Origin: Verrucomicrobiota bacterium
GTDB lineage: Bacteria > Verrucomicrobiota > Verrucomicrobiia > Opitutales > Seribacteraceae
Assembly: GCA_027622665.1 (NCBI GenBank)
Contig: JAQBYT010000042.1
Location: 1-33,429, forward strand
Length of the DNA stretch: 33,429 nt
Direction of reading: 5' to 3'
The translations under genes and the position numbers were made by a program. The notes beneath the pieces are model-generated. The model searched no databases and was not told the origin of the DNA. It was given only the letters and a program-made list of their open reading frames with translations. Each line of letters begins with the position of its first letter. Position 1 is the stretch's first letter. Shown piece by piece: positions 1,585 to 33,429 of the stretch.

Positions 1585-4500
1585 TCAGTTCTTGTTCACC
1601 ACTTCGTCCAGATTGAGGAGAAGGTTGGCCACGAGAGTCCAAGGAGCGAGATCGCGCGGGAGAATTTCCTTGTCCGCGACACTTTCCCCATAGCTGATCA
1701 GTTTTTGAGCGGACTCCAAGTCATGGGAGTAACGTTCGTGATACATGTGCAAGACATCGAGTACGATCCGTGTTTCCCCTAGCTCGGGTCGACGGGAAGT
1801 CACGGCACGCCAAGCCCACTGGATACGTTCCTCGTCCTTAACTCCGCCTTCCTTGATGATGCGCTGGGCGAGGTTGCGGGCAGCCTCCACATGCTGAATG
1901 TCGTTCATCAACTGGAGGGCCTGCAGGGGGGTGTTGCTACGGCCGCGAACGGTGCAGCTCTGTTCACGGTTGGGAGCGTCAAAACTGGCCATGAAAGGAG
2001 CCGGCGCAGTGCGCTTTAGGAAAGTATAGAGACTGCGGCGATAGAGGTCGTCGCCCTTGCCCTGCTTGTAGTATCGGGTGTTACTGGACCCGAATCCGAC
2101 TGGTTCCCAGATATTGGGAGGTTGATAAGGCAAGACCCCTTTGCCGCCAATGGTCGGCACGAGCAATCCGCTGAGACTCAAAGCTTGGTCACGAATAATT
2201 TCGGCGTCCAACCGATGGCGCGTACCGCGAGCGAGGAGTCGGTTGTCGGGATCCTTTTCGAGCAAGTCGGATGTAACCTTGGAGCTTTGCCGATAGGCGT
2301 GACTGGTCAGGATGCGCTTCACGAAACGCTGCAGGTTCCAGTCGTCCTCGATGAAGCGCAAGGCGAGCCAGTCGAGGAGTTCGGGGTGACTGGGCAATTC
2401 GCCCTGGGTGCCGAAGTCGGCGCTGGTGCGAACCAGTCCCGTGCCGAAGAATTGTTGCCAAATGCGATTGACCGCCACCCGGGCAGTCAGGGGATGATCA
2501 TCGCGCACCAGCCAGTTGGCGAGGTCAAGACGGTTGTAATCTCGATCCTTGGGCTTCGCGGGCAGGGCAGGTAGAAAAGCGGGTACCGCGCGCAAAACCT
2601 TTTCTCCCGGATTGTCGTACTGGCCGCGTATCATGACGTAGCTTTGCCTGGCCTTCGGCAAATCGGCCATGACGAAGGTGATGGCTGTGTTCTTGTTGAC
2701 CTCGGCCTTCTTTCTCTCGAGGGCTTCTTTCTCCCGGGCCAAGGGTCCGAGCGTCTCGCCGGCCCCCGTGTAGACGTTGGCCAACCAATGATTACGCAAC
2801 AAGTCATCTTGCGACTTCGTCCACTTGGCGGGGGCTTTCCCCTTGAAACGCTTGCGCAGGTCATCCGTAAGTTCCTTGTTGCGGGCTCCCTCCCCCTGAC
2901 CTTTCCATGCCTTCCATGAAAAGGTCGGGTCCTTGGCCGGATCGGTGGTGGAAGCGATGCCGAAGTGATCCCAGACCATCTTACCGGAAAACTGCGTGAA
3001 GGCATAACCCGTCACCTTGTGACCGGGCTGGAGGCCCACCTTGGCGGCGGGAAACTCGAGGCGCACCCACTTGCCTTTCTCGGGCAACGGTCCCATGTCC
3101 ACCCGCTCGTGGGTATTCACCTTGCCCCAACCGATCTTCTCGTGAGCCCCCCAAACAGCGCGGTGCTTCCATCCGCCGACGAAGAATTGCACCATCACGG
3201 CCTCTGGTGGGTTATCCGGATCCAAGTAGCAATGAACGAAGAATTTTCCGCCCCGTGGTATAGCCAAGGGGGCTCCTTCCGAGAACACGTCCTGACCCGT
3301 TGCACTCTTAGCCGTGCGCGTGATGGCCCGCTTGCCGCTGAAGACCGGGCCCTGCTCCTTGGTGACGAATTCAAGCGGCGGACCGTTGACCTGAAGCTTG
3401 CCCTTTGGAAAGCCATCCTCGAACCACAAGGTTTCCTTGCGTTTGGGCTTTGGCAAAGGATCGAGCGAAGCAGGATCGACATACTTGATCTTGGTAACCT
3501 CGGTAGCAACCCGCTGGTTCACCTTGACGATTTCGGCATTGAGTTCGGCGAGACGTTTGTCGTCGCCGGGCCGAGGAACACGCAGAATGGGCGGGGTGTC
3601 TTTCTTGTTGCCGTCCATGGCGGGATCGGCAGCGCTGTGAAAGAACGAATAGAGGGAATAATACTCCTTGGTGGAAAGCGGATCGAACTTGTGGTCGTGG
3701 CAGACGGCGCATCCCGCAGTCAACCCCATCCAGACCTCCACCGCGGTCGAAGTGCGGTCGACGGCATAGCGGTAAATCCATTCCTCTTTGATACTGCCCC
3801 CTTCCCCTGTACTGACGTTGCAACGGTTGAATCCGGAAGCAATCCGCTGGTCGATCGTTGGTTCGGGCAGGAGATCACCAGCCAATTGCCAGCGGGTGAA
3901 CTCATCGAAAGGAAGGTTCTGGTTGAAAGCCCGCACGACCCAGTCACGGTAGGGCCACATGGAGCGTTCGTTGTCGAGGTGCAGGCCATGGGTGTCGGCG
4001 TAACGGGCGAGGTCCAACCAGTAGCGTGCCATATGCTCGCCATAGGTTTCGCGACCCATGAGATCGACGATCAGCTTGTCCCATGCCTGGGGCGACTTGT
4101 CCCCGAGGACGGCATCCACCTCGGCGAGCGTGGGCGGCAAACCGGTCAGGTCGAGATACAACCGACGTACCACGGTTTCCGGTTTTGCATATCCCGAAGG
4201 CTTCAGCCCTTCCTTTCGGAGACGATCCTGCAAAAAGGCATCAATGGGGTTATTCGTTCCGGCGACCTTGGGAATCTCCTGTTTTTGCGGAGCCTCAAAG
4301 GACCAATGCCCCTCGTACTGGGCGCCTTGTTCAATCCAACGCTTGAGCGCCTCCTTGTCGGTTGCGGTCAAAACCTTGTGAGACTTTTGGGGAGGCATGG
4401 CCTCGTCCTTGTCCTTCGAGATAATGCGGGCCCACAATTCGCTCTTTGCCAAGTCACCGGGAACGATGGCCCGGACACCATCGCGATCGGCCAAGGCCCC

Positions 4501-4671
4501 TTCCCTTTCGTCCAGACGCAGCTTGGCCTTCCGCTTCTTCGCGTCCTGACCATGGCAGGCGAAGCAATTCTCCGAAAGAATGGGCCGCACGTCGCGATTG
4601 AACCGAATGCCATCATCCGCCGCGAGGGACCACGGCAAAGCGACGGAAAAAGCCAGCATTCGAATTTTCAT
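1585..4671 (-). CDS. Planctomycete cytochrome c (PSCyt1) + DUF1549 (PSCyt2) + DUF1553 (PSD1) domain protein
   Basis: Signal peptide [18 protein letters not shown] (ATG at 4671; ORF track opens at TTG 4683). [83 protein letters not shown]. An extra domain of about 200 aa lies between DUF1549 and DUF1553. Confidence 0.93.
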
Positions 4672-4749
4672 ACCCAGAGGCAAAAGCAGAGTTGCGCCGA
4701 AGTCGCTACAAAATTACTCAGTCAGAGAGAAAGTTGAAAACGAGGACCG

Positions 4750-4817
4750 TTAGAACGTAGAGGTGTGGCACGGAGTGAGCGCAGCGAACGGAGTTGTCCA
4801 CTACCGACTGGTTATGA
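4750..4817 (-). repeat. attC site of cassette B (68 bp)
   Basis: Minus strand: R'' TCATAAC - CAGTC - L'' GGTAGTGG - ACAACTCCGTTCGCTGCGCTCACTCCGTG - L' CCACACC - TCTAC - R' GTTCTAA. L''/L' pair perfectly apart from one bulged base. Confidence 0.88.
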
Positions 4818-5372
4818 CATAGTCCACCGCAAGAATGTGAAGATAAAATACAACCAAACAATAATGCCGCTCATGATTAAAAACCAGATTGTTTTAAGAA
4901 CCCAAGGCTTTGGTTGCGGTTGGAGCAATACGGAGACCAACTTCGCTGCTCCTTCGTCTGATTCGATATGCGTATTAATGTTATCCCAAGTGTCCGGAGC
5001 AAAGTATAAGTAGTTAATGCTGATCTCTTTTTTGGGAATCAATTTTGGAAAGTAAATTTCCCTTCCACCTCCTGGAAGATCTCTAATTTCATGTTGAATA
5101 TCTGGGTAAACGTTGAAATCTGGCAGAAAATGGTGACCTAATCGAACATTCATTGCTGCTTTTCGACCAGGATTCTTAATTACAACGGAGTGAGTATTAA
5201 CAATAGCACCAGGCTTACCATCGGCTTGTGGTTTGAGACTATGTGAGGAAATGAAACCAAGGTGAGCGATTAACTTGGAACGCTTATCAATTAGATGATT
5301 AATCAACGCACCAAGAAAGAGCGTGACAACGGGCATGCCTACAGCAACAGCCAAATTCCAATCAATATTCAT
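4812..5372 (-). CDS. Cassette-borne hypothetical membrane protein (N- and C-terminal TM helices around a beta-rich soluble domain)
   Basis: 186 aa. Hydrophobic LAVAVGMPVVTLFLGALI and IWFLIMSGIIVWLYFIFTFL segments; low GC; stop codon inside attC R''. Confidence 0.85.
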   Translation of the reverse strand: MNIDWNLAVAVGMPVVTLFLGALINHLIDKRSKLIAHLGFISSHSLKPQADGKPGAIVNTHSVVIKNPGRKAAMNVRLGHHFLPDFNVYPDIQHEIRDLPGGGREIYFPKLIPKKEISINYLYFAPDTWDNINTHIESDEGAAKLVSVLLQPQPKPWVLKTIWFLIMSGIIVWLYFIFTFLRWTMS

Positions 5373-5381
5373 ATTTATTTT

Positions 5382-5447
5382 TTATAACGTAGAGATGTGG
5401 CACGGAGTGAGGCACGAACGGAGTTGCCCACTATGGACTGGTTAGCT
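5382..5447 (-). repeat. attC site of cassette A (66 bp)
   Basis: Minus strand: R'' AGCTAAC - CAGTC - L'' CATAGTGG - GCAACTCCGTTCGTGCCTCACTCCGTG - L' CCACATC - TCTAC - R' GTTATAA. Between the R boxes it differs from the 4750-4817 site by 4 substitutions and 2 single-base indels, including a compensatory G-C to A-T change in the L stem. Confidence 0.88.
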
Positions 5448-6044
5448 GCTTTCATTTTTTAGGGCGACTGCCAATTTGTTCATTGTGGAGATCATTACAT
5501 CTGGCCACTCGCAAGTTCCGGGGAAGTTCTTTGAGAAGATACTGGTTGATGTGCCTTTTCCCCAGCTGTTTCCATTTTCTGCTTTATTTCTTGGAACTGG
5601 ATATCTCCCTTTCCAAATGACAAATTCACTTAGTAGCTTTAGGAACTCTCTTTCCTCTTTTTCAATTTCGATGCTCAGACGATCAAAGAAAATATCAATT
5701 TGGTAACTTGGCCATTCGTTTGGGATTTTTGTGTCTTCGTAATTTTTCGTTCCGCTCTTTTTAATCCATATTGCTCGAAGGTAATTTTCGTATGCAAAAC
5801 CAACAAGGAGTAAAATCTGATCTTCCATGCTGTGGGCTGTATTTAGGAGGTGAGAGTCAGGATCTGTTGCTTTAAACTCGGTTTTAGTTTTGAGTTTCTC
5901 GTTGAGCTTTTTCCTATCATCCCAGAGTCTTTCTAGGAGAACTTTGGCTACTCCAAGTAAATTTGAACCTTTAAAAAGCCATGGATGGGGGGAGGAAAGG
6001 ACGTGTTCGAATTGCTGTAATCCGACTTGGTATCTTTTGTTCAT
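5442..6044 (-). CDS. Cassette-borne hypothetical protein, possibly HEPN-like
   Basis: 200 aa from ATG 6044; the TTG at 6062 straddles the cassette boundary. The pattern GFAYENYLRA ... WKGRYPVP resembles the HEPN 'ExxLKA...RYP' layout. Low GC; stop inside attC R''. Confidence 0.8.
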   Translation of the reverse strand: MNKRYQVGLQQFEHVLSSPHPWLFKGSNLLGVAKVLLERLWDDRKKLNEKLKTKTEFKATDPDSHLLNTAHSMEDQILLLVGFAYENYLRAIWIKKSGTKNYEDTKIPNEWPSYQIDIFFDRLSIEIEKEEREFLKLLSEFVIWKGRYPVPRNKAENGNSWGKGTSTSIFSKNFPGTCEWPDVMISTMNKLAVALKNESS

Positions 6045-6075
6045 TCGATTTTTAGCTAACAAAGGGATAAATCAT

Positions 6076-7497
6076 TCAATTCTCCCAGACATGGGATCCA
6101 TCAACCAATTCCTTGTAATGGGTTTCCAATCGCTGCTTCAATTCGGCCAGCTTAGCGGGATTCGACTTGGCCAAGTCCTCGCTTTCCCCAATGTCCTTTG
6201 AGACGTCGAAAACCTGAAAGTCGGACAAGGTGGCTCCCTTGATTTGGGCCACGTTGCGAGCGTCCACTTTATTCAGCTTCCCGATATCCAATTTCGCCAA
6301 CACTTTCCAATTGCCGTCCCGCATGGCGACACGGCGCCTGTTGAGGGCATTGTAATAGACCCAGACCAAGGGCTTTTTTCGAGTGATCGGCTTATTCTCC
6401 AAAGCGGGAAGGAAGCTTGCTCCGTCCAAGGCTAGGCCTTCCGGAGGCTTGGTTCCAGCCAGTTCGCAAAACGTGGGAAGGAAGTCCAGGGCCGAGACCG
6501 GTTGACTGATTACCTGTCCTGCCTTGATGCGGGCAGGCCAATGCATGATGCCCGCCACTCGAAAGCCCGCATCGGTCGTCCATAGCTTCATTCCCCGCAG
6601 AGGTTTCGGGCTACCAAAGGAACGACGTGAACCCCGACCGTAGCGAAGCAGGGTCTCGGGACCATTGTCGGATGTAAAGACGATCAGCGTATTTTCATCA
6701 AGCTTCATGGCGTTGAGGGCCTTCATCAATTTACCCACCGCCGCATCCAGATTGGTGACGTTGGCGAAGTAATGAGCTTGGTCAACGTTCTTGGCAACCC
6801 CCTCGTACTCATCGACCATCTTCTTCGGCGAAGCCACTGGCTCGTGGGGCTCGTGAAAGGCGACGTAGAGAAAGAACGGTTGGGCGGTATCCTTCGCCTG
6901 TTGTTTACTCAGCCAAGCCAATGCCTCGTCCATGACGAGCTGGCAACTGTACCCCTGCATCGGACCGACCGCTGTTCCGTTTCGGACGAAGTTGCGAGGG
7001 TTCTCATGGGACGGACTTGCATTGTTCTGAGTCCCGAACCAATGATCAAAACCAGCCGCGTCCGGCTGGGGTTGCTGAGGCGAATTGAACTTCCCATTGC
7101 AATGCCACTTGCCCGACATGCAGGTGGCGTATCCAGCCTTTTTCAAGAGTTGGGGAATGGTCACCTCGGATGCCCGCATATGCACAGACCGTCCCCCGGG
7201 TATCCAGTCATACACCCCCGCCCGATTCGGGCTGCGCCCAGTCAGCAAACCAACCCGAGAGGGTGAGCAAACCGGAGCCGTCGAGTAAAAGTCGGTGAAC
7301 CGGATTCCTCCCTTGGCCAACTGGTTGAGGTGAGGCGTCTTGATTTTCGGGTGCCCATAGCACTCGAGGTCCCCGTAGCCCAGATCATCGCAAAGAACGA
7401 CCACTATATTGGGCCTCTCCCTCTTGGCATAAACGGGAAGGCAGGCAAGAATGCCGCCGAGCAAAGCGACGACAAGAGATCGCATTGGAATTTTCAT
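6076..7497 (-). CDS. Arylsulfatase-family (S1, Cys-type) sulfatase
   Basis: Signal peptide from ATG 7497; PNIVVVLCDDLGYGD; FGly motif CSPSRVGLLTGR; GKWH; SDNG. Confidence 0.93.
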   Translation of the reverse strand: MKIPMRSLVVALLGGILACLPVYAKRERPNIVVVLCDDLGYGDLECYGHPKIKTPHLNQLAKGGIRFTDFYSTAPVCSPSRVGLLTGRSPNRAGVYDWIPGGRSVHMRASEVTIPQLLKKAGYATCMSGKWHCNGKFNSPQQPQPDAAGFDHWFGTQNNASPSHENPRNFVRNGTAVGPMQGYSCQLVMDEALAWLSKQQAKDTAQPFFLYVAFHEPHEPVASPKKMVDEYEGVAKNVDQAHYFANVTNLDAAVGKLMKALNAMKLDENTLIVFTSDNGPETLLRYGRGSRRSFGSPKPLRGMKLWTTDAGFRVAGIMHWPARIKAGQVISQPVSALDFLPTFCELAGTKPPEGLALDGASFLPALENKPITRKKPLVWVYYNALNRRRVAMRDGNWKVLAKLDIGKLNKVDARNVAQIKGATLSDFQVFDVSKDIGESEDLAKSNPAKLAELKQRLETHYKELVDGSHVWEN

Positions 7498-7732
7498 TCC
7501 CGAAAGCAAACGCAGAACGGGGAAAACGTCGCTACGAAATTTGCCGGGGCGCAAACTTTATTCGACATAACGACAAATGCCGATTCGTCTATTCCAAATG
7601 ATTTTTCGCTGGGTATCCTACCTTGCGAGTTTTTTCATTCCGACTGGGCATTGAAGAATTATCCTTGATTATCCCGCGATATTTTCAATGAATCGTTCTC
7701 CTTCACTAAACCACTGCAAACCTTTTTCCATT

Positions 7733-31851: not shown

Positions 31852-32721
31852 ATGGAAAAGAAAATCTCCCTCTTCCTCGCAATCCTCACCCTAGGATTCG
31901 CACAACAAATATTCGCACAAGACGAAAACGCCAGCGCAGGCGACTCGGAACGCTGGTCCGACTTCCTTCCGCTCAATAAGGAAATGGCGGGCGATGCCGA
32001 CCTACCGCTGCCTTTTGGCATAGGGATAACGGGCTACTGGCAGGAACAGGATTTGAAATCCAAGACAATAGGTTTGGCTATCCCCGCCAGGGCAATCCCT
32101 CAAGGTGTTATCACAGCTGCAAACGCAAAAGTGGAAAGTGAAGTAGACAGCTGGACCATTCGTTTAGACACTTGGATATTGCCATTCCTGAATATTTACG
32201 GCGTTGCAGGCAAAGTTGACGGACAAAATACAGTTGCACCCGGATTGGACATACAAGGGGCCATCACAGCTTTAGGCGGTCTTTCGGCAGGTATCGAAAC
32301 AAACGGTTTCAATGTGCACTATGATGGCGATGTTTATGGTATTGGTGCTATTCTCGCAGGCCAATGGGGTAAATATTGGGGAACAATTGACTACAACTTC
32401 ACTCAAGCCGATCTTGACATCAGCACCTCCGAAATTGATACTCACACCATCTCCCCTCGCATCGGACGCTCAGGTTCTCTTGGTAATGTAAAGGGATCTC
32501 TATGGATTGGAGCGATGCACCAAGCAGTTGATGAAAATCATAACGGACAAATAAACCAAGGTGGTCTTGATATTGAATATATTGTTCTGAACGAACAGGA
32601 AGACGAATGGAACTTTCTCCTTGGTGGGTCTGCAGAACTGAGTAAACAGTGGAACGCTTCAATAGAGGGGGGCATCGGCGACAGGAAGCAAGTGATGGGC
32701 AACCTGACCTTCCGCTTCTAG
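31852..32721 (+). CDS. Putative outer-membrane beta-barrel protein
   Basis: Signal peptide; alternating hydrophobic strands; C-terminal LTFRF beta-signal. Confidence 0.75.
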   Translation: MEKKISLFLAILTLGFAQQIFAQDENASAGDSERWSDFLPLNKEMAGDADLPLPFGIGITGYWQEQDLKSKTIGLAIPARAIPQGVITAANAKVESEVDSWTIRLDTWILPFLNIYGVAGKVDGQNTVAPGLDIQGAITALGGLSAGIETNGFNVHYDGDVYGIGAILAGQWGKYWGTIDYNFTQADLDISTSEIDTHTISPRIGRSGSLGNVKGSLWIGAMHQAVDENHNGQINQGGLDIEYIVLNEQEDEWNFLLGGSAELSKQWNASIEGGIGDRKQVMGNLTFRF

Positions 32722-32753
32722 AGGCTAGGCGAAAAATTAAACGCAAACTTTCT

Positions 32754-32791
32754 AAAAGGCGACTTGCTTGAGCGGGTCGCCTTTTTCTTTT
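32754..32791 (+). terminator. Rho-independent terminator of the beta-barrel gene
   Basis: AAAA-GGCGACTTGC-(TTGA)-GCGGGTCGCC-TTTTTCTTTT. Confidence 0.85.
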
Positions 32792-32835
32792 GTGAAGATC
32801 AAAACCAATTCCAAGCAATCCGGAACATCACTCGA

Positions 32836-32946
32836 TTGTCATTGCGAGGAAGCCCACAGGGCTGACGCGGCAATCCAGTTCAATTCTTACTGTCTTCCTG
32901 ACGATTCAGCTGGATTGCTTCGTCGCTCCACTCCTCGCAATGACAA
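32836..32946. repeat. REP/RPE-like palindromic element (GTCATTGCGAG...CTCGCAATGAC type)
   Basis: Perfect 15-bp terminal inverted repeat TTGTCATTGCGAGGA / TCCTCGCAATGACAA plus an inner stem GCAATCCAG / CTGGATTGC. Confidence 0.8.
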
Positions 32947-33066
32947 CGAGGGAAGCATCCACTCGCAATCGTTAGCAACACATTCCATCCGGGATTACCC
33001 CAACCGCGAGTCAGTCATGCATTGGGAAGAAGTTCCGAAATGAGCAGAAGGCACCAGCAGTAAACT

Positions 33067-33098
33067 CAGACGCCCTCCGGCGAACCGGAAGGCGTCTG
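33067..33098 (-). terminator. Strong hairpin, probable terminator of the minus-strand transcript
   Basis: Minus strand CAGACGCCTTCCGG-(TTCG)-CCGGAGGGCGTCTG: a 14-bp stem with one G-U pair and a UUCG loop. The U-tail is weak. Confidence 0.65.
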
Positions 33099-33140
33099 TT
33101 GAAAAACTTGCGACGTCTCCGCCGCAATCAAACGTATAAG

Positions 33141-33371
33141 TTCTGCTTAATCATAATCAACGCGCGTTCTGATGAAACGAGTGTGTCCCTCAAGGGTTTT
33201 GGTTTCCGTGCCGCCGCCGGTTAATTCCTCCAGCTTACGAAAGATGACATTGCGATCCTTGGCCGTCGTGGCGTCCCTCGCTGCTTGCTGCAAACGTGCA
33301 ATCTCCGCAGAACAATCGGATGCACTACAATCATTCTCTCGTTCCTCGTTCATGATGTGTGATCCTTGGAG
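33141..33371 (+). mobile_element. Solitary 231-bp integron cassette, apparently integrated at a GAT (attG-type) site
   Basis: Left junction G|TTCTGC (33140-33146) is the exact complement of R'' GCAGAAC (33307-33313). The right junction at the R' position reads G|ATCAGG. Confidence 0.75.
33147..33353 (-). CDS. Small hypothetical protein in reverse orientation within the cassette
   Basis: 68 aa. AAGGA lies 9 nt before the ATG, both inside the attC. The stop abuts the left cassette junction. Confidence 0.55.
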   Translation of the reverse strand: MNEERENDCSASDCSAEIARLQQAARDATTAKDRNVIFRKLEELTGGGTETKTLEGHTRFIRTRVDYD

Positions 33372-33377
33372 ATCAGG
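33307..33377 (+). repeat. attC site (71 bp) with a hybrid R' box
   Basis: R'' GCAGAAC - AATCG - L'' GATGCACT - ACAATCATTCTCTCGTTCCTCGTTCATGATG - L' TGTGATC - CTTGGA - R' GATCAGG. Arm GGAT(G)CAC(T)ACA(A)TCAT pairs with ATGATGTGTGATCC, leaving three single bulges. Confidence 0.78.
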
Positions 33378-33429
33378 ACACTCCGGCCACTTCCCAGCCT
33401 TTTCTGTACTTCTTGGTGACGTACTGTTG
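33373..33429 (-). CDS. 3' end of a gene entering from beyond the window, probably a Gfo/Idh/MocA oxidoreductase
   Basis: QQYVTKKYRKGWEVAGVS* with TGA at 33375-33373. 'YRKGW' is a typical C-terminus of PVC Gfo/Idh/MocA proteins. Confidence 0.6.
   Translation of the reverse strand, partial: QQYVTKKYRKGWEVAGVS

Follow-up and report, generated by a model that had tools for sequence, protein, structure and literature searches.

A lone reverse-polarity integron cassette, probably of phage origin, with a putative gene start inside attC in a Verrucomicrobiota genome

Introduction

In the textbook view the asymmetry of attC places the gene of an integron cassette downstream of the integron promoter, and occasional reversed cassette ORFs are mentioned in reviews. 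IntI1-3 recombine the folded bottom strand of attC with a double-stranded site, attG, which has the consensus GWT and in which crossover occurs after the G; lone cassettes that result from this attC x attG reaction are known as SALIN (Loot et al., 10.1101/2022.09.11.507474). Phages carry CALINs, and these resemble the present case in having attC arrays without an integrase, DNA methyltransferase cargo and sites that IntI1 can recombine (Qi et al. 2023, PMC9892861). They differ in that the available text of that paper presents typical same-direction arrays with one case of a divergent attC, and describes no start in attC. The symE/sRNA-Xcc1 cassette of Xanthomonas demonstrates that genes running against the array direction exist, and the accessible text states no attC start (10.1101/2025.06.18.660453). 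A recombination site that carries translation signals is known from ORF-11 in attI1, where, according to the accessible part of the source, they serve translational coupling (PMC8876359). ORF-11 differs in being a top-strand sequence of attI that encodes a separate leader peptide and not the N-terminus of the gene itself. The available text of 10.1101/2023.11.21.568050 also reports cassettes that lack a gene and carry promoters on either strand. In the open-access literature we found no description of genes starting inside attC or of reverse polarity as a phage trait, and the accessible portions of PMC9668308, PMC13108822 and PMC10661359 held nothing relevant.

The locus described here lies near the end of a 33,429-nt stretch of DNA (the window), which makes up the entire contig C38 in a Verrucomicrobiota genome of 4.5 Mb that is 93.5% complete. 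Domain annotation revealed sulfatase, DUF1501 and PSD/PSCyt genes, which are typical of the PVC group. Like SALIN at attG, the locus has a single cassette with neither integrase nor attI in its vicinity, a crossover that follows the G of GWT, and possible expression from a resident promoter. It differs in that both alleles occur in a natural population, that the CRGM hotspot motif (+6 to +9, not required) is absent when the empty-site sequence is compared with 10.1101/2022.09.11.507474, and that a bottom-strand gene starting in attC would have to be read by transcription from the attC side. With a classical cassette it shares the R''-5-L''-loop-L'-6-R' geometry, complementary R' and R'', small size and the lack of a detected promoter. 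The difference is in the polarity of the gene, which is mirrored: in place of a top-strand gene ending at attC, the conserved gene is on the bottom strand, with its stop beside R' and its start and a Shine-Dalgarno (SD)-like motif in attC.

Insertion at an attG site and its two alleles

The initial annotation had described a 231-bp cassette, and comparison of the empty and the filled allele showed this length to be exact. The insert occupies positions 33141..33371 (+ being the attC top strand). When the genome was searched with the end of the window, contig C41 of the same assembly was found to begin with the empty allele, in which the same flanks (79 nt identical on the left and 60 on the right) are joined directly and the 231 nt are absent. 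The cassette edges have a 2-nt ambiguity, which was settled by the G|TT rule (crossover after the G). The left junction at 33140..33146 (+) consists of a host G and the R' half of the cassette (G|TTCTGC); it is complementary to R'' in 7 of 7 positions and pairs with it in the fold of the circular form. The right junction G|AT at 33371..33373 (+), identified by the empty-site comparison, is the host half of the attG target. The empty site reads G|AT in agreement with the consensus GWT (10.1101/2022.09.11.507474), which is a weak criterion with 66 such sites per kb.

The alleles were checked in contigs of four public runs (X1, X2, X13 and X15) out of 23, and the joint that skips the 231 nt was found in three of them (X1, X2 and X15). 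In X1, which may be the source run, the depth was 4.88 on the filled path, 4.2 on the empty path and 10.2 on the flanks; contig depth is not the share of cells, and X1 still holds both alleles. In X13, another sample of the same study, contigs span both filled junctions, and the gap at 33224-33311 carries no weight, just like the missing cover of the insert in X15. The empty joint reached a depth of 70 in X2, from another study, and of 66 in X15, an RNA library from a third study. Thus the filled allele is present in two samples of one study only, and the two other studies examined show the empty one. Three genomes of the same genus also have the flanks without the insert. The insert is real, derived and not fixed in the population. 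Two points were missing from the initial annotation: the cassette was inserted alone at an attG site, and it is polymorphic in the population. The next attC-like pair in the window is 28 kb away, so this is a single attC; on the C41 side, 1.6 kb was scanned unfiltered, and the genome as a whole with filters.

X2 also contains a second empty allele, with a joint from 33132 to 33373 and a different 9-nt stretch at the target without the G|AT context, perhaps from a related strain. A 245-nt contig of the same run matches the attC only (61 nt, 2 differences) and has different flanks. At 32835-32945 of the window there is an inverted REP-like repeat pair, of which many copies exist in the genome and in its relatives, and this stretch varies between strains.

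The attC site

The attC has canonical geometry on the + strand, R''-5-L''(extra base)-loop-L'-6-R'. The R'' box GCAGAAC lies at 33307..33313 (+), as recognized from the sequence and the covariance model, and its minus strand forms part of codons 14-16 (C-S-A). It is followed by a 5-nt spacer and by the 8-nt L'' box at 33319..33326 (+), in which sequence, fold and covariance model place an extrahelical base at 33322, the fourth position. The variable terminal structure of 31 nt (33327..33357, +) holds the minus-strand ATG (33351-33353) and codons 1-9. At 33358..33371 (+) sequence and covariance model place the L' box (33358-33364), a 6-nt spacer and the cassette's own G (33371) before the crossover. 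R' and R'' are complementary in all 7 positions.

Of the 80 bacterial and archaeal attC sites fetched, 52 were used to build the covariance model. The site scored 18.7 bits with it (E 0.009 within 41 kb), the top match in the window, on the + strand only and with none on the - strand; genome-wide the same score corresponds to an E of about 1. The training set was picked by a pattern that resembles the query attC, so the model tests geometry and polarity and is not an independent discovery. The precise insertion is stronger evidence than this score. In a free fold the bottom strand of the circular form is predicted to give the R stem, an open spacer, the bulged L stem and the loop. It is a weak folder: the fold has -9.2 kcal/mol against a median of -15.3 for 96 others, and 9% of 500 shuffles fold as well. 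The initial annotation had called the attC well formed. This is true of the circular form only: the chromosomal copy is a hybrid whose right half is host G|AT and not GTTRRRY, and even the circular form folds weakly. No significant match to the attC was found in named phages.

A small gene on the bottom strand

The ORF at 33147..33353 (-) encodes a 68-aa protein of a small family, with a helical hairpin and a conserved tail (LTGGGxETK...TRFIRTR). Full profile search found five relatives at 49-60% identity, and alignment search seven at 50-61%; three of the eight profile matches (P0005, P0006 and P0009) were spurious WD40/repeat matches and were dropped. The core of the family extends from an invariant Ile18 through the conserved tail; the N-termini differ among members and are 11 residues shorter in two of them. 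The DNA context is known for one of the seven other members, a 65-aa homologue whose DNA (L036) was recovered by a pattern match in metagenomes; L037, the other of the two pattern matches, was a chance match. Over 53 codons the mismatches to this homologue are distributed 14/13/38 by codon position, with 25 synonymous against 17 replacement changes, and 36 of 53 residues are kept in the minus frame as compared to 10-25 in the other five frames. By this pattern, and with the relatives, the minus-strand frame is the gene and is under purifying selection. The proposal of a protein-coding 68-aa ORF on the - strand, reversed with respect to attC, is borne out; the alternative that the + strand frame from ATG 33172 is the conserved one does not fit the codon-position pattern. 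The TAA had been placed exactly at the cassette boundary. This was not correct, since it directly adjoins the R' box and lies 6 nt inward of the crossover point.

A word-index search with the single protein returned only itself, and the ESM Atlas gave only leads under 0.8. Family-member DNA was absent from 300 genomes of the class (DNA search; 9 short chance matches) and from 400 genomes of the phylum (profile search), and it was not found in viral contigs, GTDB contigs, plasmids or named phages. None of 56 candidates in a first metagenome scan was confirmed as a family member. No longer fused form was seen among 8000 candidates of 218-2000 aa, which is weak evidence. The protein matched no sequence family in Pfam, PHROG or PDB. 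The predicted structure is a two-helix hairpin (H11-27 and H31-45; mean pLDDT 62) in which the conserved tail is not modelled confidently, and Foldseek with this low-confidence model returned only generic helical hairpins, none at E <= 0.001. In one relative the N-terminal part resembles ribbon-helix-helix proteins (score 0.92; a lead). Our best guess, which is weak and held with low confidence, is that the protein could be a small phage accessory or regulatory factor. The helical hairpin, the conserved tail and the ribbon-helix-helix-like fusion in one relative are the reasons for supposing that it might act via protein-protein contact.

Translation signals within attC

Codon inspection found no ATG, GTG or TTG between R'' and the invariant Ile18, and none between ATG 33353 and Leu21. 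As there is no start codon from R'' to Ile18, the only usable start of the cassette is in attC. The claim that ATG 33353 and about 16 codons lie within attC holds: 15 2/3 codons of the 68-aa ORF do, and no other start in the cassette keeps Ile18. The chromosomal frame is open for 51 codons further up and contains GTG and TTG codons there, in the oxidoreductase gene and outside the mobile unit. An SD-like AAGGA is present at 33363..33367 (-), 9 nt before the ATG; its placement in the R'-L' spacer and the edge of L' was reported correctly, and the position is common to four viral attC. Its predicted pairing is weak (-5.2 kcal/mol), and its last three bases (GGA) are paired in the predicted RNA fold, with a P unpaired of 0.01-0.05. 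The initial annotation had also explained a 'CSA' tag as R'' read backwards. R'' and its spacer are indeed read in this way, but the tag is a by-product: homologues lack CSA, and attC heads in the other phase encode 'VHPVVR' instead.

The same head is found on another gene. The attC of the viral locus L038 is 81% identical to the cassette attC over 58 nt (E 5e-9 against the whole genome), has the same ATG in the same phase, and heads a DNA methyltransferase that is unrelated to the 68-aa family. In the terminal structure, 23 of 26 aligned bases are the same in the two sites (p < 0.001, 2000 shuffles). Of the first 48 coding bases the cassette gene has 37 in common with L038, and of the following 48 it has 12. 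As near-identical heads are found at the start of unrelated genes, the attC head is probably a portable module. In L039 the PHROG match starts at residue 12, at R'', and there is no start codon between R'' and the P-loop. L038 and L049 have downstream ATGs, so the attC starts may be optional there.

Whether homologues also start inside attC-like hairpins had been suggested as a check, and the L036 homologue was found to begin, in the same phase, in a decayed attC-like head. This head has an R''-like box, and 18 of 21 aligned columns are like the L049 loop (p < 0.001); its L'/R' side is decayed and the covariance model gives no score. A clean reversed methyltransferase cassette adjoins it. We read L036 as probably viral; the methyltransferase is the only product there that PHROGs matched. 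At 2840-4270 of L036, a phage-like contig, there are three reversed units that resemble cassettes; one of their attC sites also ends in G|AT, and runs of a 7-base tandem repeat flank the units, in both orientations.

Orientation of viral and bacterial cassettes

Searching with an attC pattern turned up 15 loci in viruses and at least 123 in genomes, of which 80 had flanks. With two further viral patterns there were 8 and 30 loci, some of them the same and others chance matches. The viral set (n=33) consists of 36 matches scoring 20 bits or more, minus 4 duplicates or partial ones, plus the L036 site; the genome set (n=70) was taken from the 80 sites, with 10 that were doubtful by eye left out. 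Judged by ORF length, 23 viral cassettes were reverse, 7 forward, 1 unclear and 2 too short. The corresponding numbers for the genome cassettes were 4, 50, 12 and 4. Matches to PHROGs were obtained for 8 of 47 viral candidate ORFs from both strands, and 8 of 8 were on the bottom strand; Pfam matched 23 of 70 genome candidates, and 23 of 23 were on the top strand. Several viral sites belong to a common array or are related, and formal p-values on orientation therefore overstate the difference. The TJE1 array looks forward, so phage arrays are not uniformly reversed.

Most of the reversed viral cassettes begin just past R''. Four distinct viral sites (L038, L039, L049 and L179) carry an AAGGA across the spacer and L'; in each of the four, a bottom-strand ORF opens at an ATG located 2-6 nt behind the L' box. 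An ATG in the same stretch was seen at none of the 27 viral sites without AAGGA; in genomes it was seen at 0 of 3 sites with AAGGA, which are forward, and at 5 of 67 without. The eight viral matches to the AAGGA pattern also included L178, L180 and L181, which are chance matches without G|TT or a stem, and two that are one site. These four sites, together with the head that L038 has in common with the cassette in sequence, ATG and phase, uphold the inverted cassette class suggested in the initial annotation.

In the viral locus L046 an array of six attC with bottom-strand genes was observed at 1997-4293, and some of the genes read through the next attC, which thus encodes their C-terminal tail.

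Chromosomal setting, expression and integrase

On the far side of the right junction, at 33373..33429 (-), is the 3' end of a host Gfo/Idh/MocA oxidoreductase gene with its TGA (33373-33375), which continues on contig C41. A terminator-like hairpin with a T tail is predicted behind the oxidoreductase at 33100..33127 (-) by a consensus scan only (2 found, 0.9 expected); it lies 20 nt past the stop of the cassette gene, in a region conserved in three same-genus genomes. The cassette is thus located between the oxidoreductase stop and its terminator-like hairpin, in the same direction, with the insertion site 1-2 nt behind the TGA. Such a placement applies to about 0.3% of all GWT sites and to 937 of 44,718 (2%) of those outside long ORFs; it is a hint only, being one event that was noticed afterwards. 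From the upstream stop to the start ATG there are 19 nt here and 18 in L038, and in L039 the two overlap, which suggests re-initiation.

No sigma-70-like promoter was found in 32600-33429. A contig of the RNA library X15 runs through the empty site, and contigs give no strand; no transcript of the filled allele was found in this library, the sole RNA run examined, which holds only the empty allele. The host barely uses SD motifs: SD-like 4-mers precede 118 of 1165 well-bounded starts (10%) as compared to 98 (8%) inside genes, nearly no enrichment in this crude gene set. Judging from these signals, the chances that the cassette gene would be translated in this host are near even.

No IntI over the family cut-off was detected in this genome, at 93.5% completeness, or in 8 same-genus genomes, and intI with attI was found in 0 of the 9 genus genomes including this one. 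IntI is present in 11 of 52 other genomes of the family. Given its lack in genome and genus and its presence in the family, the enzyme may have come from DNA that was not assembled, from a passing element or from a previous host. In five viral records with such cassettes, four of them incomplete, no tyrosine recombinase was found. The recombinase on contig C5 was rejected as the integrase (105 bits against a cut-off of 265). This gene (L022, C5:58101-58613) is a shortened, AT-rich tyrosine recombinase with a Phage_int_SAM_4 domain, the best match to the IntI model in the genome.

Interpretation and alternative explanations

Taken as a whole, the locus is probably a reverse-polarity integron cassette whose source was most likely a phage and which an integron integrase from elsewhere recently inserted alone at a GWT site (attG). 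Phage origin is proposed because of the look-alike viral attC heads and L036. IntI would excise the unit as a circle and recombine its folded bottom strand with the double-stranded GWT site. The bottom strand of attC would thus be used twice, as folded single-stranded DNA for recombination and, in the form of RNA, as the 5' end of the gene, where it could supply AAGGA, ATG and about 16 codons. As in phage operons, such cassettes would be read by transcription that arrives from the attC side, and re-initiation after the stop of the upstream gene might help to open the hairpin. At this locus the oxidoreductase transcript could be playing the upstream role; it is proposed to serve the cassette because the cassette lies between its stop and its terminator in the same direction.

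Only over this last step does another reading differ, which we regard as a serious contender, a little short of even chances. It holds that the cassette is a real reverse cassette whose attC start works in the source phage and is not translated here, intergenic insertions merely surviving. The scarcity of SD motifs in the host, the partly paired AAGGA and the lack of an RNA contig over the insert are consistent with this, as is the restriction of the filled allele to two samples of one study, with the empty allele in the two other studies examined. The placement is rare, at 2% of GWT sites outside long ORFs, but was noticed after the fact. Against such a silent passenger, the ORF is intact and under purifying selection, the 19 nt from stop to ATG are nearly the 18 nt of L038, and the filled allele has about half the depth in the source run. 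The locus might also have arisen by accident, a reversed gene fragment having been captured beside attC and a chance ATG in the loop completing the frame. The variable N-termini of the family, with two members 11 residues shorter, would permit this; five of 67 bacterial attC without AAGGA have an ATG there, and the four viral AAGGA sites are related and so not independent. Yet the same ATG, spacing and phase occur on the unrelated methyltransferase of L038, the ATG is found at 4 of 4 viral sites with AAGGA against 0 of 27 without and at 0 of 3 forward bacterial sites with AAGGA, a second family member starts in an attC-like head, the stop abuts R', and R' and R'' are fully complementary. An accident is thus unlikely and largely refuted.

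Inversion of the body of a forward cassette between the R' and R'' heptamers is less probable still. These form a perfect flanking 7-bp inverted repeat, and the gene, if flipped back, would end just before R'' as in textbooks, but it would then have no start before the invariant Ile18; neither the ATG-bearing head common to L038 nor the reverse bias of viral arrays would be explained. The least credible reading is a classical forward cassette, with its + strand ORF from ATG 33172, or a gene-less regulatory one. A 69-aa + strand frame does exist in the circular form, and the available text of 10.1101/2023.11.21.568050 reports gene-less cassettes with promoters on either strand. The substitution pattern, on the other hand, fits the minus frame only, the stretch 32600-33429 showed no sigma-70-like promoter, and the + frame has no match in Pfam, the collection searched for it.

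The reading that we prefer, a recent reverse-polarity insertion, can be extended to phages in general, although we consider this extension rather doubtful. Phages may run a mirror-image cassette system in which attC is a portable translation-start module joined in frame to unrelated genes, and from which cassettes leak to attG sites of bacterial chromosomes and are kept between a stop and a terminator. In that case a cassette behind any gene could be translated by coupling, the present locus would be a natural snapshot of the process, and the joining of attC heads with phage ORFs would be relevant to how cassettes are made. A reverse class with its start in attC would combine the same recombination chemistry with another logic of expression, which is apparently the one of phage operons. 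In bacterial arrays reversed cassettes would be silent or would be called gene-less, and their starts would be mis-annotated. The locus is also a natural example, with both alleles, of attC x attG insertion, which has so far been known mainly from laboratory assays. At 231 bp, the cassette could be a convenient test piece for the dual use of one hairpin.

Other cassettes and repeats in the genome

Two classical forward cassettes are present on the - strand at 4750-6062 of the window. They encode proteins of 186 and 206 aa, are low in GC and have no Pfam or PHROG match; their near-identical attC sites lie at about 4750-4815 and 5382-5445, and with no integrase nearby they form a small CALIN. 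Another attC (28.2 bits) was observed on contig C65 of the same genome (L215, C65:27404-30477), where the cassettes look forward and a MarC gene and the end of a reverse-transcriptase-like ORF are also present; this resembles a group II intron beside attC. An 81-nt direct repeat (74% identical) at 4635-4715 and 7461-7541 of the window corresponds to the 5' ends of two - strand genes and probably represents similar signal-peptide coding.
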